Source of the DNA: an uncultured Paraglaciecola sp. | GTDB taxonomy: Bacteria; Pseudomonadota; Gammaproteobacteria; Enterobacterales; Alteromonadaceae | DNA: 64,000 bases | Assembly: GCF_943787955.1 (NCBI RefSeq) | Contig: NZ_CALSOK010000012.1 | Span: 2,619-66,618, forward strand | Direction: 5' to 3' | Shown here: positions 9,859 through 59,565 of the stretch, in pieces | Layout of the letters: each line of letters starts with the position of its first letter | Numbering within the stretch: the first letter of the stretch is position 1 | Notes under the pieces: generated by a model | The model's input: only the letters and a program-made list of their open reading frames with translations | Databases searched by the model: none | Told to the model about the DNA's origin: nothing | Position numbers and translations under genes: made by a program

Positions 9859-9956
9859 AAATCACCCACGTATAAAAATTGTCTCTGATTATTCAGTAAT
9901 TTTAATTAAGATACCATCCATTAAGCACAAAAGTTTGACCTAGGTCGTTGATAACA

Positions 9957-10289
9957 TTAATGGGCAGATGTCTGCTTGTCTCTCACTAAAAGAAAAATCA
10001 CTAAGGTAAATAAGATAACCGGCCAAAATACACTTAGACCGGCAACAAACAAACCAATTCCTGCGGTAATAAAGGCGAAAGCAATAGCAGTAAAAAGGCT
10101 AAATGCGATGATAAAACCCACTACAACCAATATAGCTAGCACGCCTGTTAGTGCGATAATGGAAGTGATAGGTTCAACATCATGCTTTGCAAAGGAAATA
10201 TGCAAATCTAACCACTAGGTTACTAAGTGACCCAGGCTGTACGTCAATACCATCGATATCAACACAGCTAGGGTTATGTTTTTAAACAT
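9957..10289 (-). pseudogene. Small membrane protein of the pspA-pspC operon with an in-frame TAG
   Basis: ATG at 10289 follows an AAGGGA RBS. It reads MFKNITLAVLISMVLTYSLGHLVT, then TAG (10217-10215), then continues in frame (WLDLHISFAKHDVEP...) to 9957. Confidence 0.7.
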
Positions 10290-10299
10290 GATGCATCCC

Positions 10300-10500
10300 T
10301 TATTTGTTTGGGATCAGGATTGTGGCAGTAATATAAGCGATAGCAGTGATGGTAGGCAGTGCGATTAAACAGACTACAGCCGCTACGCGAACTAACAACC
10401 TAGGTACGCTCCAATGTTTCGCTAAACCGGCACATACACCTGACACTTTTCGATGTATTGAATCTTTGTATAATCTATTTACTTCAAAATAACGACTCAT
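10300..10500 (-). CDS. pspC: PspC domain-containing protein
   Basis: RLYKDSIHRKVSGVCAGLAKHW...AYITATILIP is the PspC domain. Confidence 0.85.
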   Translation of the reverse strand: MSRYFEVNRLYKDSIHRKVSGVCAGLAKHWSVPRLLVRVAAVVCLIALPTITAIAYITATILIPNK

Positions 10501-10576
10501 GTTTTTCTCCTATGACTTCAAGTTTCTGCAGCTAGCGACAGTGGTGGTGCGCCACTAGCGAATGGGCAAATCAACA

Positions 10577-11236
10577 CTAAGCAACCTTTGAACGCAATGC
10601 TTCTAGCTCTTGCTCAATTTGACTCTCAGATTCAAGTTGATTGAACTGTGCATGTAAGCCTGTTGACTCATCCACTAAATCATAAGCGTCAACTTGTGAC
10701 TCTAGATCATCAATTCGGCGCTCATATTGCTCAAACCGGATAATTGCATCATCAATCTTCACTGAATGAGCTTTATTCTTAATGGTCATGCGCACGGCTA
10801 CCGAACGCTCTCTAATAATCAGAGATTTTTGTTTAGCTCGGGCTTCCACTAGTTTGTCTTGCAATTTGCCCATGTCAGCTTGTAATTTAGATAGCGATTC
10901 TTCAACCACATTTAGCTCATCAGTTAAAGCTGATAATTTTTGCTGACTATGGTGCTTTTCAACCAATGCGGCTCTAGCCAAATCTTCACGATCTTTCTCT
11001 ACCGCCAAGGCCGCCTTTGCCTGCCATGCATTGATCTGTTGTTGCAATTTGTCCACTTGGCGCTGTACCTGCTTTTTTTCAGCTAGGTGAGTGGCCGCCA
11101 CTGAGCGTAACTCCACTAAGGTTTCTTCCATTTCTTGGATCAGTAACTTAATCACTTTTGCAGGCTCTTCTGCCTTATCTAAGATGGCATTGATATTGGC
11201 TTGTATTATGTCTGACACTCTCGAAAACATACCCAT
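10577..11236 (-). CDS. pspA: Phage shock protein A (PspA/IM30 family)
   Basis: MGMFSRVSDIIQANINAILDKAEEP, coiled coil, REDLARAAL and FEQYERRID. Confidence 0.92.
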   Translation of the reverse strand: MGMFSRVSDIIQANINAILDKAEEPAKVIKLLIQEMEETLVELRSVAATHLAEKKQVQRQVDKLQQQINAWQAKAALAVEKDREDLARAALVEKHHSQQKLSALTDELNVVEESLSKLQADMGKLQDKLVEARAKQKSLIIRERSVAVRMTIKNKAHSVKIDDAIIRFEQYERRIDDLESQVDAYDLVDESTGLHAQFNQLESESQIEQELEALRSKVA

Positions 11237-11308
11237 GTTGATTTCTCCAATAAAATTAATAAATTTCCTGCTGGGCTATTCCAGCACTACCAGTACTAAC
11301 AACGCTAT

Positions 11309-11325
11309 TACAAGTGTTGTGCCAA
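11309..11325 (-). promoter_or_regulatory. Sigma-54 promoter of pspA
   Basis: TTGGCACAACACTTGTA on the minus strand matches TGGCAC-N5-TTGC with one mismatch at -12. Confidence 0.7.
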
Positions 11326-11418
11326 TTTAACAAGATAGGGTAAGCAATTGATTAAATTGAGTTTTTAATTAATTATGCAATACTTAACTATTTGAAAATC
11401 TCGAGCTAACTTAACAAT

Positions 11419-11455: not shown

Positions 11456-11716
11456 TTGATATTTAATAGACTGTGAGCCCACAACTTACGACAAAGAAAA
11501 AGTGGTTAATAGAAACTAGTCACGATACCCAATATGTTTAGGCTGTTCTGATCATTCTGTGGATTTCTTGGTATAGAGCATCACCGCAATATGTTGAATG
11601 ACGCCTATAAACGATAAACAGTCCTACTATAAACATATGCCAGCAGTCCGCATCACGGCAAAAAGGGCCGTACGCGGTTGAAAATTTTGGGATGATTTTA
11701 TCTCATAAATATAAAA

Positions 11717-11871
11717 TTAGGCGAGGAACGGTCATTCGAGTAGTCGAAACCAGGTGTCTGCTTAGCCCAAGAAAGCGGACGTAGCTATTTATGGTGTTTT
11801 AGTCCCTTTGGAGCGAATAGCGGATCTTCAGCTTTATTGCTTTGATGGACGGATTCACGCGCAAAACGGTC
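11717..11871. repeat. Array A of degenerate 24-25 bp palindromes, about 46-bp period
   Basis: GTCTGCTTAGCCCAAGAAAGCGGAC (11756-11780), GTCCCTTTGGAGCGAATAGCGGATC (11802-11826), GACGGATTCACGCGCAAAACGGTC (11848-11871), and a half element ending at 11733. Confidence 0.7.
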
Positions 11872-12001
11872 ATCGAACTCGCTCATAACTATATCTCAAT
11901 ATGGCACATGGCGCATTACAGAACATCCCTATTTAACTTTAAATTAGTGGCCATATTCACCAAGCCACTAGTGTATATAATATTGACATATGGGTGAATT
12001 T

Positions 12002-13036
12002 TTAGCGTGATTTTTTATGTATTGAAAGTATATCTTCAATAACAGCGTATCCTGTTTCCAAGCGCCCAGCACCTGGACCAATTAAGGTAATATCACCTAG
12101 TAATTCTGTTGAATAAGTAATAGCATTTGTCGCGCCTTTAATTGATGCGAATGGATGTTCACTCGATACCATCTCAGGTTTAACTGATGCTAAGAACCCA
12201 TAGTTATGCTTTTCAATTGTTCCAATTAATTTCCAATGCTTCTTTAAAGAAGTGGCGTTAAAAATATCATTCTTTGTGATATGGCAAATGCCTTGACGCT
12301 CTATATCATCTAATGTAAGCGATAAATCCATTAAAAGATTCCCCAGAATAACTACTTTTGCAGCGGCATCATAACCCTCAACATCCCCTGTAGGATCTGC
12401 TTCAGCATAACCAAGTTCTTGTGCTTGTTTGAGTGCATTTTCATACCCTGCTCCTGAAGACATCTCATCTAATATATAATTTGTCGTGCCATTAAGAATC
12501 CCTTGGATTTTTGTTATTCCGGCAGCTAACACCATCTCATTACCTAAGTTTATTGCAGGAGTTCCGCTCATTACAGTGCCTTCAATGCCAATTTGAACAT
12601 TATTGCTTAATGCTATTTTACGAAGTTCAGGAAAATGTAAAGCCACCGGTCCTTTATTAGTCATAGAAACATGCATACCATTATTTAATGCCTGTTTAAT
12701 ATGACTTACTGCGGGTTCACCTGTTTGTAGATCAGTAAAAGCAAGCTCTACTAAAATATCAGCTCCACTTTTATCAATCGTTTCAGTCGCATTCCAGCCA
12801 GTGATGGGAGCCGAAGTACTTTTTAGATCTCCATGCTTTTCTAGATCAGATAATAATACTTCAGGGTCCAAACCCTTAGGGTTATAAAGACTTCCTTTAT
12901 ACAAGTCACATATCGCTACGATGCTTAAATGAATACCAAACTTTTCTATTAACAGTTGTTTTTTATCACTAATAATTTTAGTTAGGCCTTGACCAACATT
13001 CCCAAAACCGATTATTGCTAATGTGTATGTTTTCAT
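12002..13036 (-). CDS. Homoserine dehydrogenase (short form, no ACT domain)
   Basis: IIGFGNVG Rossmann motif, MTNKGP, GILNGTTNYIL, GYAEADPTGDVEGYD and GPGAGRLETG. Confidence 0.92.
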   Translation of the reverse strand: MKTYTLAIIGFGNVGQGLTKIISDKKQLLIEKFGIHLSIVAICDLYKGSLYNPKGLDPEVLLSDLEKHGDLKSTSAPITGWNATETIDKSGADILVELAFTDLQTGEPAVSHIKQALNNGMHVSMTNKGPVALHFPELRKIALSNNVQIGIEGTVMSGTPAINLGNEMVLAAGITKIQGILNGTTNYILDEMSSGAGYENALKQAQELGYAEADPTGDVEGYDAAAKVVILGNLLMDLSLTLDDIERQGICHITKNDIFNATSLKKHWKLIGTIEKHNYGFLASVKPEMVSSEHPFASIKGATNAITYSTELLGDITLIGPGAGRLETGYAVIEDILSIHKKSR

Positions 13037-13088
13037 TATGTTCTTCCTAAGTTAACTCTTTAAAATGTTGAATGATTGTTCGATGGCG

Positions 13089-14525
13089 TTACTTTCGTAA
13101 ATTAAAACAATAAGTTTTTATGTCGGTCATTTCTTTAACAGCATTCATAACACCTTCTCGGCCAACACCTGATCCTTTGACTCCACCAAATGGCATTGCA
13201 TCAATGCGATAATCACTGCTGTCATTTATCATGACGCCACCACAATCCATTGAATCTGCAAGTTCAAACGCTAACTCAAGATCATTGGTAAATATTCCAG
13301 CTTGTAAGCCAAATTCAACATCATTTGCTTGAGCTATTGCCTCTTTTTTATCAGAAAATCGATACAACACAGTGATAGGTCCAAACACTTCTTCTTTGGC
13401 AATTAAGCAGTCACTGCTTACATTTGCAAAAACAGTAGGTTGAAAAAAATTTCCCTGTCTTTTCCCACCACACAGTAATGTGGAATTTTTCTCTAGGGCA
13501 TCTTTTACCATCGCTTCAACTTTAAGAGCAGCACGATTATTAATCATTGGACCCATCTGCGAAGATTCAGATAGTTTGTCGCCCATAGATATTTTGCTTG
13601 CACGCAAACAAAACTCTGAGGAAAACTGATCATATAGTTCATCTTGAATATAAATTCTTTGAACATGTAAACAGTTTTGGCCTGCTGCCCAGAAAGCACC
13701 ACTGACACATGCTTCCATTGCCATCTCAATATTTGCATCATTCATGACTATTACTGGACAGTTACTGCCAAGCTCCATTGATACTTTCTTTAAACCTACG
13801 TGACTTAGAATTCTTTCTCCGACACATTTTCCTCCAGTAAATGAAACCATATTAATGCGAGGATCTGATACGATCTTATCGCCTATATCTATTCCATATC
13901 CTGTAACCAAATTTAAGATACCTTTAGGTAAATTTGTTTTATTAAATAGCTCTACAAGCAGTTTTGCGACAAGAGGCGTCTCATGGTGAGGCAGGAGGAT
14001 TATTGAATTTCCTGCTGCTATAGCGGGACCAATTTTATGAGCGACTAAATTTAAAGGGTCATTGAAGGGAGTAATAGCTGCAACAACGCCAATAGGTATC
14101 CGACGATAATACCCAAACCTATTTTCAGAGCCGGGAGCTTGATCAAAAGCAATAGTTTCTCCCGTTAAACGCCTCGCTTCTTCCGCGCTTATTCGTATGG
14201 TTTCCACACATCTAGAAACTTCTTTACGCGCTTCATTAATGGTTTTAATACCTTCACGAGCAATCATTTGAGCGAAGAATTCTTTTTGATTTCTTAAATT
14301 ATCAGCAACGTCATTAAGTACAGACATTCGTAAATGTGAAGACAGTTTTTTAGCTTTTTGGGCGCCTATCACTGCGGTCTCAATAATAGCGTCCACTTCA
14401 CTTAAAGAGTTGTTCACAACTGTTCCGACTAAACTGCCGTCTTCAGGGTTGAATACTTGTATCTGTGGTTGTGAGCTTTTTACATCTATAGCAGCGGAAG
14501 CAGACAAATTTTGTATTGCAGACAT
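13089..14525 (-). CDS. NAD(P)-dependent aldehyde dehydrogenase
   Basis: ITPFNDP, SFTGG, catalytic Glu (MELGSN) and Cys (GQNCLHVQR), EEVFGP, and MPFGGVKGSG. Confidence 0.93.
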   Translation of the reverse strand: MSAIQNLSASAAIDVKSSQPQIQVFNPEDGSLVGTVVNNSLSEVDAIIETAVIGAQKAKKLSSHLRMSVLNDVADNLRNQKEFFAQMIAREGIKTINEARKEVSRCVETIRISAEEARRLTGETIAFDQAPGSENRFGYYRRIPIGVVAAITPFNDPLNLVAHKIGPAIAAGNSIILLPHHETPLVAKLLVELFNKTNLPKGILNLVTGYGIDIGDKIVSDPRINMVSFTGGKCVGERILSHVGLKKVSMELGSNCPVIVMNDANIEMAMEACVSGAFWAAGQNCLHVQRIYIQDELYDQFSSEFCLRASKISMGDKLSESSQMGPMINNRAALKVEAMVKDALEKNSTLLCGGKRQGNFFQPTVFANVSSDCLIAKEEVFGPITVLYRFSDKKEAIAQANDVEFGLQAGIFTNDLELAFELADSMDCGGVMINDSSDYRIDAMPFGGVKGSGVGREGVMNAVKEMTDIKTYCFNLRK

Positions 14526-14683
14526 GGTGATATTCCTTTGTTATCTCTTTAGTGAATTATGGATAGTCTACCTAGCAGTAACGGTATACATCAGTCCTTA
14601 TATAAAGATAAGTGATTATTAATTCATTGTTTTTGTAAAATATTGATAGAATCACATCAGTAATTGCGAGGGAGTATTGAGTT

Positions 14684-15157
14684 GTGAAATTAAGTAAGCA
14701 AGATCTAAAAATATTGGAATTATTACAAATAGATGTAAAAACTTCTGTTGAGCGCCTTTCCGAAGAAGTAGGGTTATCGGCTGCAAGTATACAGCGACAC
14801 TTAAAGCGCTTAAGAGATAATAAAGTTATCGCTCAGGAAGTAGCAATAATATCGCCTGACTCTGTAAATCAATCAATGACCTTTATCATATCTGTACAAC
14901 TAAATAGAAGTTATAACGATTGTTTTAATTATTTTAAAAACAAAGTAAAAAATAATAATAATATCCAGCAGTGTTACTACATAACGGGTGAGGCGGATTT
15001 CGTTCTGGTAGTGACAGCAAAAGATATGGAAAATTTTGAAGAGTTTACTCAATTATTTTTTTTTAGTGACATTGCTGTGCTTCACTTCAAAACATCTGTT
15101 GTTATGGGCAGAACAAAAGTTAGTTTAGCATTACCCCTGAATTGTGTAGATATATGA
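14684..15157 (+). CDS. Lrp/AsnC-family transcriptional regulator, divergent from the ALDH-hom operon
   Basis: N-terminal HTH (LSEEVGLSAASIQRHLKRL) and C-terminal QCYYITGEADFVL. Confidence 0.9.
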   Translation: MKLSKQDLKILELLQIDVKTSVERLSEEVGLSAASIQRHLKRLRDNKVIAQEVAIISPDSVNQSMTFIISVQLNRSYNDCFNYFKNKVKNNNNIQQCYYITGEADFVLVVTAKDMENFEEFTQLFFFSDIAVLHFKTSVVMGRTKVSLALPLNCVDI

Positions 15158-15391
15158 AGCATGTTTCTAACATCATGATAATAAAAAGAATATAGTTTCT
15201 TCTGGTGAGATTATGACAGACACAGATCTTGCTGCGAGTTGGTCTGCACTGATGTGACGGTCGCCTTATAAACCCAAGTTTGGAGTTTGTATAACAAAGG
15301 GCGTTAGCGAGTTAGTTTTCTAAGACGTAAAGGAGGTGATAGCACCTTAGGACTAATGCTCTAATTCATCAGGATTTTTAAAAAGGCCAAT

Positions 15392-15558
15392 GACCGCTCT
15401 GGTGGCTAACTTGCCGTAAAAAAATCAGAAAACATGGATTTTGTATGCCCGCTTATGGCACAAACTTCCCCATCAGGGTAAACGCTCGACCGTCTGCTAT
15501 TAGGCTCACAGCGGCCTGATTCAATTCCCAAATGACTGCTTAGCCTAAGTAAACGGAC
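15392..15558. repeat. Array B of degenerate 24-25 bp palindromes (four elements)
   Basis: GACCGCTCTGGTGGCTAACTTGCC (15392), GCCCGCTTATGGCACAAACTTCCC (15447), GTCTGCTATTAGGCTCACAGCGGCC (15492) and GACTGCTTAGCCTAAGTAAACGGAC (15534). The last matches the 11756 element at 21/25 positions. Confidence 0.7.
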
Positions 15559-15603
15559 TGTGGTGAAATACAATTTTTTGGTAATCTATCGCAGTAATAT
15601 GGA

Positions 15604-15675
15604 CATTAACGCTGCGCTCACCGGCAAGCTTTAAGCGCAGCGAGGAGCTTGTCCGAGTGAAGCGCCTTGTTAAAT
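15604..15675 (-). other. Integron attC site (72 bp)
   Basis: The minus strand reads ATTTAAC (R'', RYYYAAC)-AAGGCGCTTCACTCGGACAAGC...GCTTGCCGGTGAGCGCAGC-GTTAATG (R'). This is an imperfect palindrome with bulges. R'' is the exact complement of GTTAAAT at the cassette start. Confidence 0.88.
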
Positions 15676-16298
15676 TTTCCATGACCCTTTATAAACTCAT
15701 ACATGACAATCTCTTCGGCTAAATATTGTCGAAGTTGTTTTTCGAGTTCATGGTCTAAAGAAGTAGAAAACTTAGGTGATATATTTTCATGTGGTATCTC
15801 GATTTCTCGCCCTATTTTTTTAGATAGAAAGTCAGCGACTAAGTCTAGCCTATTCATTGGCATTATATGATCTACGCCAATCTCACCATTAGTCATAGTT
15901 AGGAAGTCGTATTGACTTGCCAAATTTGCAAATGGCTTCCTTTTTCCTTCAGAAATATATTCTTTGATATATTCATTGTAACTCATGCCACCGGTGTAAT
16001 TTCGATGATTTGGATGATTCGGGTTTTTAATTTCATCTCTAGTTTTATAGCGATACCTGCTTTCCATCCTTTCTAAAGGATCTCTTATCAAACTGAAAGA
16101 TTCTATCTCTACATTTGGAAGCAGTTTCTTGTGCGCAGAAAATATTGTTTCAGAGAATAATTGAGCATTAATGTGTTTTAATTTGGGATGTCCCGAAAAA
16201 TTTATATTGCAAAATGGTTGTATAGCCTTTTCAATAGATGTTGATGCACACTTCGGCATGCACAAAAAAGCAATACCATACTTAGTAGACATCTGCAT
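15618..16298 (-). CDS. Integron gene cassette ORF: sulfotransferase family 2-like protein
   Basis: PKCASTS (5'-PAPS-binding-like) and IRDPLERMESRY (3'-PB-like) motifs. The ORF starts 16 bp after the attI crossover and its last codons run through attC. Confidence 0.65.
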   Translation of the reverse strand: MQMSTKYGIAFLCMPKCASTSIEKAIQPFCNINFSGHPKLKHINAQLFSETIFSAHKKLLPNVEIESFSLIRDPLERMESRYRYKTRDEIKNPNHPNHRNYTGGMSYNEYIKEYISEGKRKPFANLASQYDFLTMTNGEIGVDHIMPMNRLDLVADFLSKKIGREIEIPHENISPKFSTSLDHELEKQLRQYLAEEIVMYEFIKGHGKFNKALHSDKLLAALKACR

Positions 16299-16313
16299 AA
16301 CACGTATCCTGTA

Positions 16314-16345
16314 ATTTAACGCTTATTATCGAGCATGTCGTATAT
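16314..16345 (-). other. Integron attI site
   Basis: The minus strand reads ...CATGCTCGATAATAAGC-GTTAAAT, giving a GTTRRRY core at 16320-16314. It lies between the divergent intI and the first cassette. Confidence 0.75.
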
Positions 16346-16626
16346 GTAACTTCTCGATTTGATTTTTATTTTCGTCAATTTCAGTACTTACCTATTAATT
16401 TTTATGTGATATTTTTCACTTTCATGCCAGCAAGACCGCAAAGAATTGAAAAGCAAAAGGAGACCTGACTTTAACGCGACTTTTCTGCTTCCTATTAAAA
16501 ACTATGTGAATAATATTTTCCATAATTAAATGAATAACTTAGCGTATTTTTGAAAAACAAAACGAGACCTAAGGAATTTACATAATAGGAAGCAATCTTG
16601 GCATTATTTTAAAATATGCATTATAT

Positions 16627-16643
16627 CTGTATATAAAAAACAG
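16627..16643. promoter_or_regulatory. LexA (SOS) box of intI, one base too long
   Basis: CTGTATATAAAAAACAG is CTG-N11-CAG, against the CTG-N10-CAG consensus. It lies 23 bp upstream of the intI ATG. Confidence 0.7.
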
Positions 16644-17536
16644 TATGATTTGCAGAGGGTAATATTATGTCAAAGTCACCTTTTATAGAATATGTTCGAA
16701 CTATTTTGCGAACCAAAAGGTATAGCATAAAAACTGAAAAGGCCTACCTTCATTGGATTAGGCGATTTATTTATTTCAACGGCAAGCGTCACCCTAAAGA
16801 TATCGGTGAACTAGAGGTTGAACAGTTTTTATCACATCTTGCCATAGCGCTAAAAGTCTCGCCAACGACTCAAAATCAAGCCTTGTGCGCCATCATTTTT
16901 ATGTATCGTCATGTGCTTAATATGGACTTGACTAATATGTCCTTTAAATTTGCTAAGACGCCTGTCCGTGTACCTGAAGTATTAAGTCATAATGATGCGA
17001 TTGCTGTAATCGATAAATTACGAGGGGTTCATCATACTATTGGGACATTAATGTATGGCGCGGGATTTCGTATATCTGAGGTGCTGAAGCTGCGCGTAAA
17101 GGATTTTGATTTTGAACGAAATACTATTTTTATTTTTCATTCAAAAGGCCAAAAAGACCGTGTAACCATGTTTCCAGAATTGACTAAGACCGAGATTACT
17201 AAACAAATTCAAAAAGTGGAGTGTATTCACCAAAAGGACATTGATGAAGAGTATGGACTGTCATCACTACCACCTGCTCTAATTCGTAAATATGGGAAAG
17301 CCGCTACTAACTTATCTTGGCAATATATATTTCCTTCAACTACACGATGTGTCCCCCTTACGATGGCTATGTATGCCGGCATCACCTTCACCAAACTGGG
17401 TTTCGAAAGGCCTTAAAGAAAGCAGTGCAAGAAGCAGGCATTTTAAAACGGGTTACATCACATACCTTTCGTAAGCGTCCGGTGATCCACGCCTAGCAGT
17501 CATCCATTATTCATTCGAAAATACTTCCTCACTGTA

Positions 17537-56106: not shown

Positions 56107-56511
56107 TTGCCGGTGCAAAATAATCTTAAAGAAGGTCAAAGTGTGCGTTTAGACAAGTGGCTTTGGGCTGCGCGTTTTTATAAAACTCGCTCTATAGCCA
56201 GAGATGCGGTGCAATCTGGTAAGGTGCAGTACAACGGACAACGCAGTAAACCTGGAAAAATAGTAGAATTGGGGGCTAGTATAAAGATACCCCAAGGATC
56301 CGACCTAAAAGATGTTGTGGTACTGCAGATGAAAGAACAGCGCCTAGGCGCACCACTTGCGCAATTAATGTATAAAGAAACCCCAACCAGCGAAACGTTA
56401 CGCGCAAGTAATGCAGAAGCAAGAAGATTGAGCGCCTTTCACAGCCCAAAACCTGACAACCGGCCAGACAAAAAACAACGCCGCCAAATTATTCAATTTA
56501 AACAACAGTAA
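56107..56511 (+). CDS. hslR: Ribosome-associated heat shock protein Hsp15
   Basis: VRLDKWLWAARFYKTRS, RPDKKQRRQ. Confidence 0.95.
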   Translation: MPVQNNLKEGQSVRLDKWLWAARFYKTRSIARDAVQSGKVQYNGQRSKPGKIVELGASIKIPQGSDLKDVVVLQMKEQRLGAPLAQLMYKETPTSETLRASNAEARRLSAFHSPKPDNRPDKKQRRQIIQFKQQ

Positions 56512-56536
56512 TACTTAAGGTAATAAGGTAAACAAC

Positions 56537-57427
56537 ATGGCTTTTGACCAACTTCATCGATATTTATTCAATCAAGGCAATGTAAGAGGAGAAATGGTGC
56601 GTTTAGAAAAAAGTTTTCAGGCCATTTTAGACTCTTACCCCTATCCACCTGTTATCCAACAACTTCTGGGTGAACTGATGGCTGCTGCTAGTTTGTTGAC
56701 CGCCACATTGAAGTTTGAAGGTGATATTGCCATCCAAATCCAAGGCGAAGGGCCACTCAGTTATGCCGTTATTAATGGCACTCACAATCAGCAGTTAAGA
56801 GGTGTCGCTAGGTGGGATGAAGCGTTGCAAACTTTGCCAACTGAATTTGGTCAGTTGGTACAAAAAGGTGTGTTGGTGATCACAATTACTCCTGAACAAG
56901 GTGAGCGTTATCAAGGCATGGTGGCGCTGGATAAACCTACTTTAGCAGAATGTATTGAAGGTTATTTTGAGCAATCAGAGCAATTGGCAACTAAAGTCAT
57001 ATTGCGCACTCAGCTTAGTGAACAACCCGCAAAAGCTTGTGGCATGTTTTTACAAGTTTTGCCCCTTAGCAGTGAATCTACCCAGAAAGCGGATACAGAC
57101 TTTGAACACCTTAGTGCTATTACCGATACTATAAAAGACCAAGAGCTGTTTAACTTGCCGGCTGAAGATATTTTGCACCGTTTATACCATGGTGAAGATA
57201 TTGAACTATACCCCGCCACTAAAGTGGTGTTTAAGTGCAGTTGCAGCAAAGAGCGAAGTGCCGCAGCTTTGGCTGCAGTAGGTAAAGAAGAGTTACTTGA
57301 TATAGTAGCCAAAGACGGTGATATAAAAATGAACTGCCAATACTGCCACACAGAATATAGCTTCGATGCTATTGATGTGGAAAGTATTCATGCAGGCACT
57401 TTTAATCTTCCCGTTGGACAGGGCTAG
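56537..57427 (+). CDS. hslO: Hsp33 redox-regulated chaperone
   Basis: RYQGMV, CSCSKER, CQYC zinc motif. Confidence 0.95.
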   Translation: MAFDQLHRYLFNQGNVRGEMVRLEKSFQAILDSYPYPPVIQQLLGELMAAASLLTATLKFEGDIAIQIQGEGPLSYAVINGTHNQQLRGVARWDEALQTLPTEFGQLVQKGVLVITITPEQGERYQGMVALDKPTLAECIEGYFEQSEQLATKVILRTQLSEQPAKACGMFLQVLPLSSESTQKADTDFEHLSAITDTIKDQELFNLPAEDILHRLYHGEDIELYPATKVVFKCSCSKERSAAALAAVGKEELLDIVAKDGDIKMNCQYCHTEYSFDAIDVESIHAGTFNLPVGQG

Positions 57428-57497
57428 TTGCATATTAACATTTGATGATAACGTTTAGTTTGGGCTTGGATTGGCTCTGAGATGTAAAGAAAAGCGA

Positions 57498-57527
57498 CTG
57501 ATACTTTAAAGGATAGTAAAGTATCAG
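57498..57527. terminator. Hairpin between convergent hslO and the MBL gene (possible bidirectional terminator)
   Basis: CTGATACTTTA-N8-TAAAGTATCAG is a perfect 11-bp stem, but lacks a clear U tract. Confidence 0.45.
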
Positions 57528-57574
57528 AGTGAAATCCGATGCCTAGTTTCTTGGCTAAACCTCATTTTATTTGA

Positions 57575-58543
57575 TTAATCTAGACAAACACGTTCACCGC
57601 GCTTCGCGATTTTGAAACCTTTTTGTTGAACCGAACTGTATTGTTCGCTTGAAGAATATCTAATTTTATTACTATGATTGATATGAAAAAATCGAACCTT
57701 TTTTTGTTCAGTCAAAGGCAAGTTTTTGAATCGAGTCATTGAATCTGCTACGCGAGGATGAGGGATCTTTGACATATCTCGCCCTGGCAATTCATTGTTA
57801 TCGAAGAACGTAGCATCAAGGTATGCCACGTCAACTTGAGATATCATATCCTCAATACGGGTATTAAATTCGGTTTCCCAGCGATTCCAATCGTCAATGT
57901 CGGGCAAAAACAGTACACTTTTTGACGGGCCTTTAACAACATAGCCAGCTGTTTCAGAATATTCGTCGCGATGAGGCACCAAGTAAGCAGTTACCGATAA
58001 ATCATCATTAAACACGACAGGTTTTTTGGGCATCATTGAGATCAGGTCAATGTTTTTATAGTTTACTAGTTGATCCCACGGGCCATTGTTTTCCAAATAA
58101 TTTTGCATACGTGGTAATGGAAAAACGTTAAGTCCTTGGGTACCAATAGATTCATGTCCTGCGAACATCAAACCAGCATAATGACCAATATGTGCGTGTG
58201 TTAAAAATACAGCAGATAATCCGAGCGGCGCATTGCCGCCGTCACTCATACTATCAAGCAGATTCATTTGTTCTCGTAAGTCAGGAGTGGCCTCAAAAAG
58301 ATAACGGTTAGAATAACGATGATCGACTAATGCCCCTGATGCCGCCCATAATTTTAGAGAAGGGTTTACCCAAGCTGGATCATCTGGGTTCCCAATTTGG
58401 GGAGCTCCTCCGTCCTGCCCTATGCCTAGAATAACAAATTCGACGTCACAGGATAAAGAAGCCTGTTGATCCACAGAGGAAAGATCTGCGCAGCCTGCTG
58501 TCATTAAAGTCGAGGTGAATAAAAGAAGTCTGTAAAATTTCAT
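57575..58543 (-). CDS. Metallo-beta-lactamase-fold lipoprotein, PqqB-like
   Basis: Start MKFYRLLLFTSTLMTAGC (lipobox), LGIGQDGGAPQIG, FLTHAHIGHY, VPHRDEYSE, DATFF, IPHP, HINHSN. Confidence 0.75.
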   Translation of the reverse strand: MKFYRLLLFTSTLMTAGCADLSSVDQQASLSCDVEFVILGIGQDGGAPQIGNPDDPAWVNPSLKLWAASGALVDHRYSNRYLFEATPDLREQMNLLDSMSDGGNAPLGLSAVFLTHAHIGHYAGLMFAGHESIGTQGLNVFPLPRMQNYLENNGPWDQLVNYKNIDLISMMPKKPVVFNDDLSVTAYLVPHRDEYSETAGYVVKGPSKSVLFLPDIDDWNRWETEFNTRIEDMISQVDVAYLDATFFDNNELPGRDMSKIPHPRVADSMTRFKNLPLTEQKKVRFFHINHSNKIRYSSSEQYSSVQQKGFKIAKRGERVCLD

Positions 58544-58926
58544 GAAATATCCTCTGATGTCTATGAGTAAACATTGCAATATCTTTTCTCTTTCGCCATT
58601 CCACATAAGCTTGCTATCCACTTCGCAGCTATATATTTCTTGACGATTATTGCGCCATTGAATCATGTGTTCGGGTATGACATAGCTAAAAACTCGTTGC
58701 TGTCTTTATTACACTTTTTTATTTCGAATGCTGTTTGATTTTTTACTTAATGGATAAATTATGTTCAATATTAAATTGAAAACATAACACATATTAACTA
58801 TTACAATGGGTATCTGTGAAATTTTTCAACAACTCGGCAAGTCTATATGGCCTTATTAACTCTGTTCTGTGAAGAAAACACACAAACAGGTTAAGATATT
58901 TAAATACTGTCACACTATTGAGCAAC

Positions 58927-59565
58927 ATGAAGAAAATTGATATTAATACTTGGTATAGAAAGGAACACTTCGAATTTTATTCTAGGTTCGAACAGCCTTT
59001 CTTCAATGTGTGTGCAACAGTTGATGTCTCTAAAACACTTAATTATTGTAAAGAAAATCAGCTTTCTTTTTTCATCTGTGCTTTGTTTCTTCTTGGTTAC
59101 ACGGCCAATCAAATAGAACCATTTAGGTTTCGCATAAACAAAAATGAAGTCGATGTGTATGATGAATTAGAAATAAGCTGCACTGTGTTAAACAGTGACG
59201 AAAGCTTCAGTTTTTGTGAGTTTGGGGCCTGTAGTCACTTTGATTTATTTTATCAACAGGCTGATCAACAGCTCACTAAACTAAAAAATGGTCATATATC
59301 CTTAGAGTCATCCAATACAAAATCCAATAATATATTCTGTTCTGTTTTGCCTTGGTTACATTTCACAAGTTTTTCTCATGCCCTGAAACAAAGTAAACAT
59401 GACTCGGTGCCCAGAATAGTGATGGGTAAATACAAAAAAAGTTATAACGAAATAGCGATGCCTGTATCGGTTGAAGTCCATCATGCACTGATTGATGGCT
59501 TACATGTAGGCCAATATTTCGAAAAGCTGCAACTGAATTTCAATCATTTCTTTGAACTCGAATAA
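58927..59565 (+). CDS. CatA-like O-acetyltransferase (chloramphenicol acetyltransferase family)
   Basis: IDINTWYRKEHF, SVLPWLHFTS, VHHALIDGLH (catalytic HHxxxDG). Confidence 0.85.
   Translation: MKKIDINTWYRKEHFEFYSRFEQPFFNVCATVDVSKTLNYCKENQLSFFICALFLLGYTANQIEPFRFRINKNEVDVYDELEISCTVLNSDESFSFCEFGACSHFDLFYQQADQQLTKLKNGHISLESSNTKSNNIFCSVLPWLHFTSFSHALKQSKHDSVPRIVMGKYKKSYNEIAMPVSVEVHHALIDGLHVGQYFEKLQLNFNHFFELE

Follow-up and report, generated by a model that had tools for sequence, protein, structure and literature searches.

The oxidation of homoserine to aspartate in two steps, by a homoserine dehydrogenase and an aldehyde dehydrogenase (ALDH), is already known from Pseudomonas and rhizobia. In Pseudomonas canavaninivorans, the NAD+-only homoserine dehydrogenase HD and the ALDH AH are encoded in one operon; purified HD, together with either of two ALDHs and aspartase, carried homoserine through aspartate to fumarate, and aspartate-semialdehyde oxidation was shown for both the AH and AC enzymes (MBJ2347000.1 and MBJ2347154.1; PMC9533460). 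A short homoserine dehydrogenase of Arthrobacter nicotinovorans (AnHSD), which has an ALDH neighbor, uses only NAD+ to oxidize homoserine and shows no reduction of the semialdehyde; Liang et al. classed it with the Rhizobium protein WP_011654697.1 and tied a GxGxxN signature to NAD-only oxidative activity (bioRxiv 10.1101/2021.02.09.430557). The gene for the Rhizobium protein, pRL80071, is situated near a cluster for homoserine catabolism on its plasmid, and its expression is induced in the pea rhizosphere (PMC10228743). Reports of this form of homoserine catabolism have so far been confined to soil- and plant-associated bacteria that use canavanine or pea exudates. Here, we describe a related gene pair, encoding an ALDH and a homoserine dehydrogenase without an ACT domain (Hom), and a divergent Lrp/AsnC-family regulator gene in a 64,000-nucleotide stretch of DNA (the window) from an uncultured marine Paraglaciecola sp. 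(contig NZ_CALSOK010000012.1, positions 2,619 to 66,618 of the forward strand).

We consider it likely that these three genes form a self-contained, horizontally acquired unit that would take homoserine to aspartate semialdehyde and on to aspartate. A preliminary description of this DNA had proposed a catabolic homoserine-to-aspartate module, and comparison largely supports it: the gene pair recurs across phyla, the ALDH falls in one clade with those of rhizobial loci, and the corresponding chemistry was demonstrated with Pseudomonas enzymes. The catabolic reading draws on homology, conserved synteny and the published biochemistry of relatives, from which we infer the substrates of these two enzymes, the direction of flux and the regulator effector. 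In the model we favor, the Lrp/AsnC regulator, which could sense homoserine or a related amino acid, would control the operon of ALDH and Hom that diverges from its gene. The Hom, which is short and feedback-insensitive, would convert L-homoserine to L-aspartate-4-semialdehyde, and the ALDH would oxidize the semialdehyde irreversibly to L-aspartate, thereby pulling the Hom step forward and feeding central metabolism. Such a route would yield two reduced nicotinamide cofactors per homoserine.

The ALDH gene (13089..14525, minus strand; 478 aa) is the first gene of the operon and encodes a proposed non-phosphorylating L-aspartate-4-semialdehyde dehydrogenase. It is followed, 52 bp downstream and behind a ribosome site (AGGAAG), by the gene for the Hom (12002..13036, minus strand; 344 aa), which is proposed to work in the oxidative direction. 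An AT-rich region of 158 bp (14526..14683), a presumed control region, separates the operon from the regulator gene (14684..15157, plus strand; 157 aa, GTG start). The open reading frame coordinates and domain matches agree with the intact two-gene operon and divergent Lrp/AsnC regulator described previously, and all three genes are intact, given that orthologues have equal lengths (344, 478 and 157 aa). As also described, no thrB, thrC, metA or asd gene lies nearby: none was present among the open reading frames scanned at 7.7-19.8 kb, a scan with no dedicated search for thrC and metA. The host assembly (4.23 Mb, 26 contigs) carries biosynthetic thrA-thrB on contig C2 (thrA-like frame of 831 aa) and asd on contig C10, making the module Hom a supernumerary copy. 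The earlier statement that the neighbors of the module are decaying holds for the right side, where there is a truncated integron integrase and IS66, but not for the left, where the psp genes look intact.

The Hom has the domains PF03447 (NAD-binding) and PF00742 (catalytic) only, with no ACT match in Pfam, as the preliminary description had it, and scores 414 bits against the NCBIfam equivalog NF004912, above the cut-off of 373. The catalytic and substrate block TNKGP / GILNGTTN / GYAEADPTGDVEG.DAA.K is kept, and is the same in the rhizobial catabolic Hom and in solved Hom structures; in alignments with orthologues, the rhizobial catabolic Hom and structures 4ydr and 3do5, the TNKGP lysine, GILNGT, EADP and D...K are invariant. 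The dinucleotide motif is GFGNVG in the window Hom and all marine orthologues, and GFGGVN in the Hom proteins of the rhizobial plasmids pRL8 and pRLG201. In the Hom tree, the proteobacterial clade has full support (100 in the Shimodaira-Hasegawa-like approximate likelihood ratio test, SH-aLRT), with ALDH adjacent in 28 of 31 rows; in one of the remaining three, the locus is truncated where its contig stops. This mostly marine clade is separate from the rhizobial one; closest to it are proteins from Chloroflexota, at 55-60% identity.

The ALDH is a full-length match to PF00171 (residues 16-471, E 8.6e-147) and keeps the catalytic residues N155 (PFND), E251 (MELGS) and C285 (GQNC), along with the EEVFGP motif. 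In a tree of 44 ALDHs, whose ingroup was labelled after the tree was seen so that the grouping is descriptive, the ALDHs encoded in one operon with a Hom of this type, 38 in all, group in a single long-stemmed clade (SH-aLRT 100). Among its members are the ALDHs of the window, pRL8, pRLG201, Priestia, Chloroflexota and Woeseia. Four paralogues of the host fall outside, as do the ALDH of an ectoine cluster on Sinorhizobium meliloti pSymB and, at one Chloroflexota locus, an unrelated ALDH in the vicinity of Hom. An initial labelling of the Hom-linked ALDHs as one clade was rejected by the approximately unbiased test; two rows had been mislabelled, one being a different ALDH near Hom (L023) and the other an ALDH parted from Hom by a gene for a pyridoxal phosphate (PLP) enzyme (L082). 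The closest host paralogue (contig C24, 65202-66432) is 33-56% identical in pieces and, broken into four reading-frame fragments, resembles a pseudogene with frameshifts.

The preliminary description had likened the ALDH to DoeC of ectoine degradation. A DoeC reference was sought in Gammaproteobacteria, where six loci around true DoeA matches contained no ALDH, and neither a Shinella locus nor a pSymA locus provided a usable one. The pSymB ALDH, which stands beside asnC-like and ehu/eut genes and was taken as the DoeC/Ssd counterpart from gene position only, is 33% identical to the window ALDH. Given this identity and its place outside the clade, the likeness to DoeC stands as a functional analogy for the last step and falls as orthology; in the phylogeny, with the pSymB ALDH as stand-in for DoeC, the window ALDH belongs to a different subfamily.

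Relatives of the two genes are found together in many bacteria, and both proteins have numerous marine homologues. In a plasmid collection (3,706 records with an ALDH match), the best Hom matches adjoin the best ALDH matches. On pRL8 of Rhizobium johnstonii 3841, the order is Hom WP_011654697.1 (46% identical), ALDH (49%), homoserine kinase, an Lrp/AsnC regulator and an ABC transporter; on pRLG201, a plasmid of the strain whose canavanine gamma-lyase was characterized, it is a PLP enzyme, Hom (46%), ALDH (49%) and an Lrp regulator. A scan of relatives with one genome per species returned 80 loci, which were mapped. The regulator/ALDH/Hom trio is syntenic in about 17 marine gammaproteobacterial loci at 58-99% protein identity, in hosts that include Colwellia, Glaciecola, Paraglaciecola, Litorilituus, Kangiella, Nitrincolaceae and Pseudomaricurvus, and the flanking genes vary by locus. 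The ALDH-Hom pair is also present in Woeseia, SAR324, Gemmatimonadota and part of the Chloroflexota, where the order is usually Hom then ALDH. No thrB/thrC-type or met neighbors occur in the 80 mapped loci. The neighbors in relatives are PLP lyases, hydrolases, transporters and amino-acid regulators, and these contexts look catabolic.

Other arrangements were noted among these loci. One scaffold of Pseudomaricurvus alkylphenolicus carries, at separate sites, two diverged copies of an ALDH-Hom-PLP enzyme group (L014 and L037), with Hom proteins 69% and 58% identical to the window Hom. In Woeseia and related metagenome-assembled genomes (MAGs; L038, L053 and L075), a hydrolase of the metallo-beta-lactamase fold adjoins the pair; its match to acyl-homoserine lactone (AHL) lactonases is weak (54 bits, far below cut-offs), and it is a possible homoserine-lactone-opening front end. 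In seven Chloroflexia MAGs (L019, L024, L025, L027, L048, L055 and L061), a Hom of the same family ends a conserved string of genes for PdxS, PdxT, a class I/II aminotransferase, a GntR/FCD regulator and the alpha and beta subunits of a 2-oxoacid:ferredoxin oxidoreductase, without ALDH, and this string may represent a different homoserine-related catabolic route. Four Anaerolineae/Herpetosiphon MAGs (L031, L040, L049 and L064) have tandem ACT-less Hom paralogues, 36-37% identical, the second with GFGNVA, preceded by genes for DUF3090 and a HipA-like kinase.

The regulator consists of PF13404 (an AsnC-type helix-turn-helix) and PF01037 (the Lrp/AsnC ligand domain), and its counterparts in marine gammaproteobacterial loci, 58-99% identical to it, are likewise divergent from the ALDH-Hom pair. 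It is this conserved divergent synteny that points to control of the operon by the Lrp/AsnC protein. Two intergenic elements are common to 14 orthologous loci, a TGAT-N8-ATCA-like element near the regulator start and TAG.TAGA.TAT. Promoter and terminator scans were at chance level, an Rfam scan of 11.0-16.8 kb gave nothing credible and no match in the control region, and the pRL8 Lrp protein had no tblastn match with the window regulator at E 1e-3.

Several observations indicate that the unit is portable, as had been supposed. The three genes, with about 30 bp beyond the Hom stop codon and up to about 120 bp beyond the regulator stop codon, constitute a horizontally shared block (11972..15275). 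In blastn comparisons, the block is 93% identical to two Colwellia MAG loci (L003 and L004) over 11972-15208 and 11972-15275, 91% identical to a Glaciecola MAG locus (L005), and 87% identical to Colwellia hornerae and Colwellia sp. C1TZA3; homology ends at these borders, and the flanks are unrelated. The distribution is patchy, with the module in five of 200 other genomes of the family and none of six sampled genomes of the genus, and the copy in Paraglaciecola arctica is only 71% identical. Among cultured strains, Colwellia hornerae ACAM 607 and Glaciecola punicea ACAM 611 have the module. The GC content of the module is 36.5% (24-27% at third codon positions, GC3) versus 40.6% for the genome (GC3 of 34-39% in neighboring genes). 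Acquisition of the 3.3-kb module from Colwellia-like bacteria by horizontal transfer thus appears well supported. The suggestion that the unit is under selection is likewise upheld by pairwise ratios of nonsynonymous to synonymous substitution (dN/dS) of 0.12-0.17 for Hom, 0.08-0.17 for ALDH and, lowest of the three, 0.03-0.07 for the regulator. These values (0.03-0.17 overall), obtained against several hosts, show that carrier lineages have maintained the genes. Near-identical sequence is present in marine metagenomes of more than 10 studies. Metatranscriptome contigs of three runs also cover the module, one bridging ALDH and Hom; the non-coding flanks are covered too, two of the runs belong to the study from which this DNA may derive, and assembled contigs do not demonstrate transcription; we did not count them as evidence of expression.

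No attC, inverted repeat or transposase belonging to the module was found. The possibility that the module is an integron cassette was rejected, as the block ends at 11972 and 15275 have no attC-like inverted repeat. A repeat of about 100 bp flanks the module in direct orientation (11729-11824 and 15505-15617); it is dispersed throughout the genus and is absent beside the module in other hosts. A 31-nucleotide direct repeat (11750-11780 and 15528-15558) was considered as a pair of transposon ends and rejected, because it is part of this dispersed repeat and is missing at the module elsewhere. The repeat, with the core CTGCTTAGCCYAAGWAARCGGAC, has about five copies in the genome (also on contigs C10, C17 and C23) and many in congeners, and several copies end at a GTTAATG-like site beside attC. 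The module lies about 230 bp from a duplicated integron segment, in a region where congener homology breaks off: positions 15505-16803 (cassette, attI and start of intI) are 99.3% identical to C17:63675-64978, and positions 16317-17471 are 99.8% identical to C23:55990-57143. This repetition reflects either several integron copies or a strain mixture in the assembly. To the left of the module, congener homology ends near 11,460-11,600, and a comparison with congeners defined no clean empty insertion site. In one fragmented congener (L116, genome G503), the region of pspA adjoins, with the order inverted, sequence that in the window is 45 kb away at 56.5-59.2 kb (9951-11330 versus 56492-59152); the region of about 11.5-56.5 kb, with the module, integron, IS66 copies and ISCR relics, may be a variable or rearranged island.

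A number of points weigh against a homoserine-to-aspartate function. The ALDH falls below every NCBIfam equivalog cut-off (the best match, to lactaldehyde dehydrogenase, is 499 bits versus 650), and its closest solved relatives are ALDH21, lactaldehyde dehydrogenase, succinate-semialdehyde dehydrogenase and GapN. The GxGxxN signature of the characterized oxidative Hom class is absent from the window Hom, which has GFGNVG in its place, so that NAD-only use and an oxidative bias do not follow from class. The Chloroflexota Hom relatives often occur without ALDH and in other contexts, with an aminotransferase and 2-oxoacid:ferredoxin oxidoreductase, beta-eliminating lyases or a second Hom as neighbors; thus, the Hom family alone does not dictate a catabolic role. 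The nearest loci with documented function are only 46-49% identical. Finally, no transporter or homoserine-releasing enzyme is linked to the module. Canavanine gamma-lyase, guanidine exporter and ABC importer genes are all missing at about 7.7-19.8 kb around it, and the genome lacks a lyase of the NF006097 class (best match 241 bits, cut-off 600) as well as DoeA (65 bits, cut-off 613) and DoeB (98 bits, cut-off 403). With none of the known front ends in the genome and no linked transporter, the input would most simply be homoserine itself.

Some of the same points could be accommodated if the pair acted on a different substrate, oxidizing another omega-hydroxy compound, such as another 4-hydroxy amino acid or 2,4-dihydroxybutyrate, via the aldehyde to the acid. 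The ALDH without a curated equivalog, the varied substrates of its solved relatives, the Hom without GxGxxN, and the missing feeders and transporter would all be consistent with this. We regard it as unlikely, since the Hom is above the equivalog cut-off for homoserine dehydrogenase with its whole substrate and catalytic block kept, and since the ALDH shares a clade with the ALDHs of homoserine and canavanine loci. It is also improbable that the module has no role in the host and is passenger DNA, carried in a variable region rich in junk and intact only through recent arrival. The purifying selection seen in comparisons with several hosts, the full length of all three genes and the recurrence of near-identical sequence in marine metagenomes argue against a mere passenger, even if the surroundings of a dead integron integrase, IS66 copies and ISCR relics, the end of congener homology some 400-500 bp to the left of the module, the still foreign GC and GC3, and the lack of a linked transporter would suit one.

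Homoserine could also be the product of the pair's Hom rather than its substrate. Hom is reversible, as established biochemically, ACT-less Hom enzymes are biosynthetic in yeast and archaea, and the window Hom has an ordinary GxGxxG motif; the enzyme might then be a feedback-insensitive biosynthetic back-up, with the ALDH unrelated or detoxifying excess semialdehyde. We think this very unlikely. Complete thrA-thrB and asd are present elsewhere in the genome, an ALDH that destroys the substrate of Hom makes little sense in the same operon, and at the mapped loci the pair is accompanied by catabolic neighbors and not by thrB, thrC or met genes. Catabolism of homoserine to aspartate remains the best-supported reading.

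In other hosts, the pair stands directly behind a Cys/Met-family PLP enzyme (NF006097 equivalog, 680-700 bits) that is expected to release homoserine, with or without ectoine hydrolase- or deacetylase-like genes. The PLP-Hom-ALDH trio is found among DoeA-like, DoeB-like or M20, EhuB, EutB and cyclodeaminase genes in five Chloroflexota/Acidobacteriota loci (MAG loci L033, L036, L047, L056 and L068) and on Priestia megaterium plasmid pBMV_1 (L084), and in these ectoine-type clusters it stands in the place of DoeD/DoeC. A set of genes named abgB-thrA-adh was listed in putative ectoine catabolic clusters of Bacillota in 2026 with no chemistry assigned (PMC13188858). The composition of these clusters suggests an undescribed branch from diaminobutyrate through homoserine and aspartate semialdehyde to aspartate. 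The preliminary description had proposed AHL breakdown or algal non-protein amino acids as sources of homoserine. For the stand-alone module, the input might be taken up from algal exudate, or might be homoserine lactone that is released as quorum signals turn over and then ring-opened. In a diatom co-culture, a marine bacterium drew down homoserine from the medium (PMC8027193), so the substrate exists in the habitat, and the host genome has three genes of the penicillin-amidase family, which includes AHL acylases. These two observations are circumstantial, and neither is evidence for a specific source.

What is new here is the marine, stand-alone and mobile version of the pathway. The two-enzyme logic known from soil and plants, with its own regulator, appears to be packaged in a 3.3-kb unit that moves between genera of polar and marine Gammaproteobacteria under purifying selection, and its spread may point to homoserine, or a homoserine-yielding compound, as a contested nutrient of the marine phycosphere. 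As a tentative extension, about which we have more doubt than confidence, the trio could act as a mobile "homoserine funnel" that stands on its own and spreads among Gammaproteobacteria associated with algae in cold water (Colwellia, Glaciecola, Paraglaciecola, Kangiella and others), harvesting homoserine from phytoplankton exudates or homoserine lactone from quorum signals. The Lrp-type protein would then be a sensor dedicated to homoserine. In other phyla, this funnel might be placed behind other front ends, one of them a PLP-enzyme route, apparently undescribed, that would lead from ectoine-derived diaminobutyrate to homoserine in Chloroflexota and Bacillota. The cross-phylum clade of Hom-linked ALDHs provides a handy marker for the pathway. 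The module also gives annotation pipelines grounds for avoiding the labels "GapN" and biosynthetic "Hom" for these genes. In practical terms the gain is modest, namely a substrate prediction open to testing for a common, mis-annotated gene pair.

Compared with the described systems, the module most resembles the HD-AH branch of P. canavaninivorans and the Rhizobiales (PMC9533460) in having an ACT-less Hom and an ALDH in one operon and a regulator in the locus. The identities of 46% and 49% were measured on the pRLG201 pair, not on the assayed Pseudomonas proteins, and the pRLG201 ALDH is in the same clade as that of the window. The module differs from this branch in lacking the canavanine gamma-lyase, guanidine exporter, ABC importer and aspartase, in its gene order (ALDH then Hom, where theirs is Hom then ALDH) and in its marine host. 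With the AnHSD/pRL80071 class, it shares a length of about 345 aa, the absence of ACT, coexistence with a biosynthetic Hom, the ALDH neighbor, an Lrp/AsnC regulator in the locus and the catalytic motifs, whereas the window Hom has GFGNVG and the rhizobial proteins GFGGVN, the clades are separate and the regulators are not close.

The resemblance to the DoeD/DoeC (Atf/Ssd) ectoine pathway with DoeX lies in the proposed non-phosphorylating oxidation of aspartate semialdehyde to aspartate by an ALDH and in the Lrp/AsnC-type regulator. In contrast to that pathway, Hom, rather than a diaminobutyrate transaminase, would supply the semialdehyde here, and the pSymB ALDH is, at 33% identity, outside the clade. 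The Bacillota abgB-thrA-adh operon (PMC13188858) has the same pair, with the Priestia megaterium pBMV_1 Hom 49% and ALDH 57% identical to those of the window and the ALDH in the same clade. The pair there follows ectoine-hydrolase-like, cyclodeaminase, Cys/Met-family PLP and M20 genes, whereas the window module has none of these and consists of the ALDH, the Hom and their divergent regulator.

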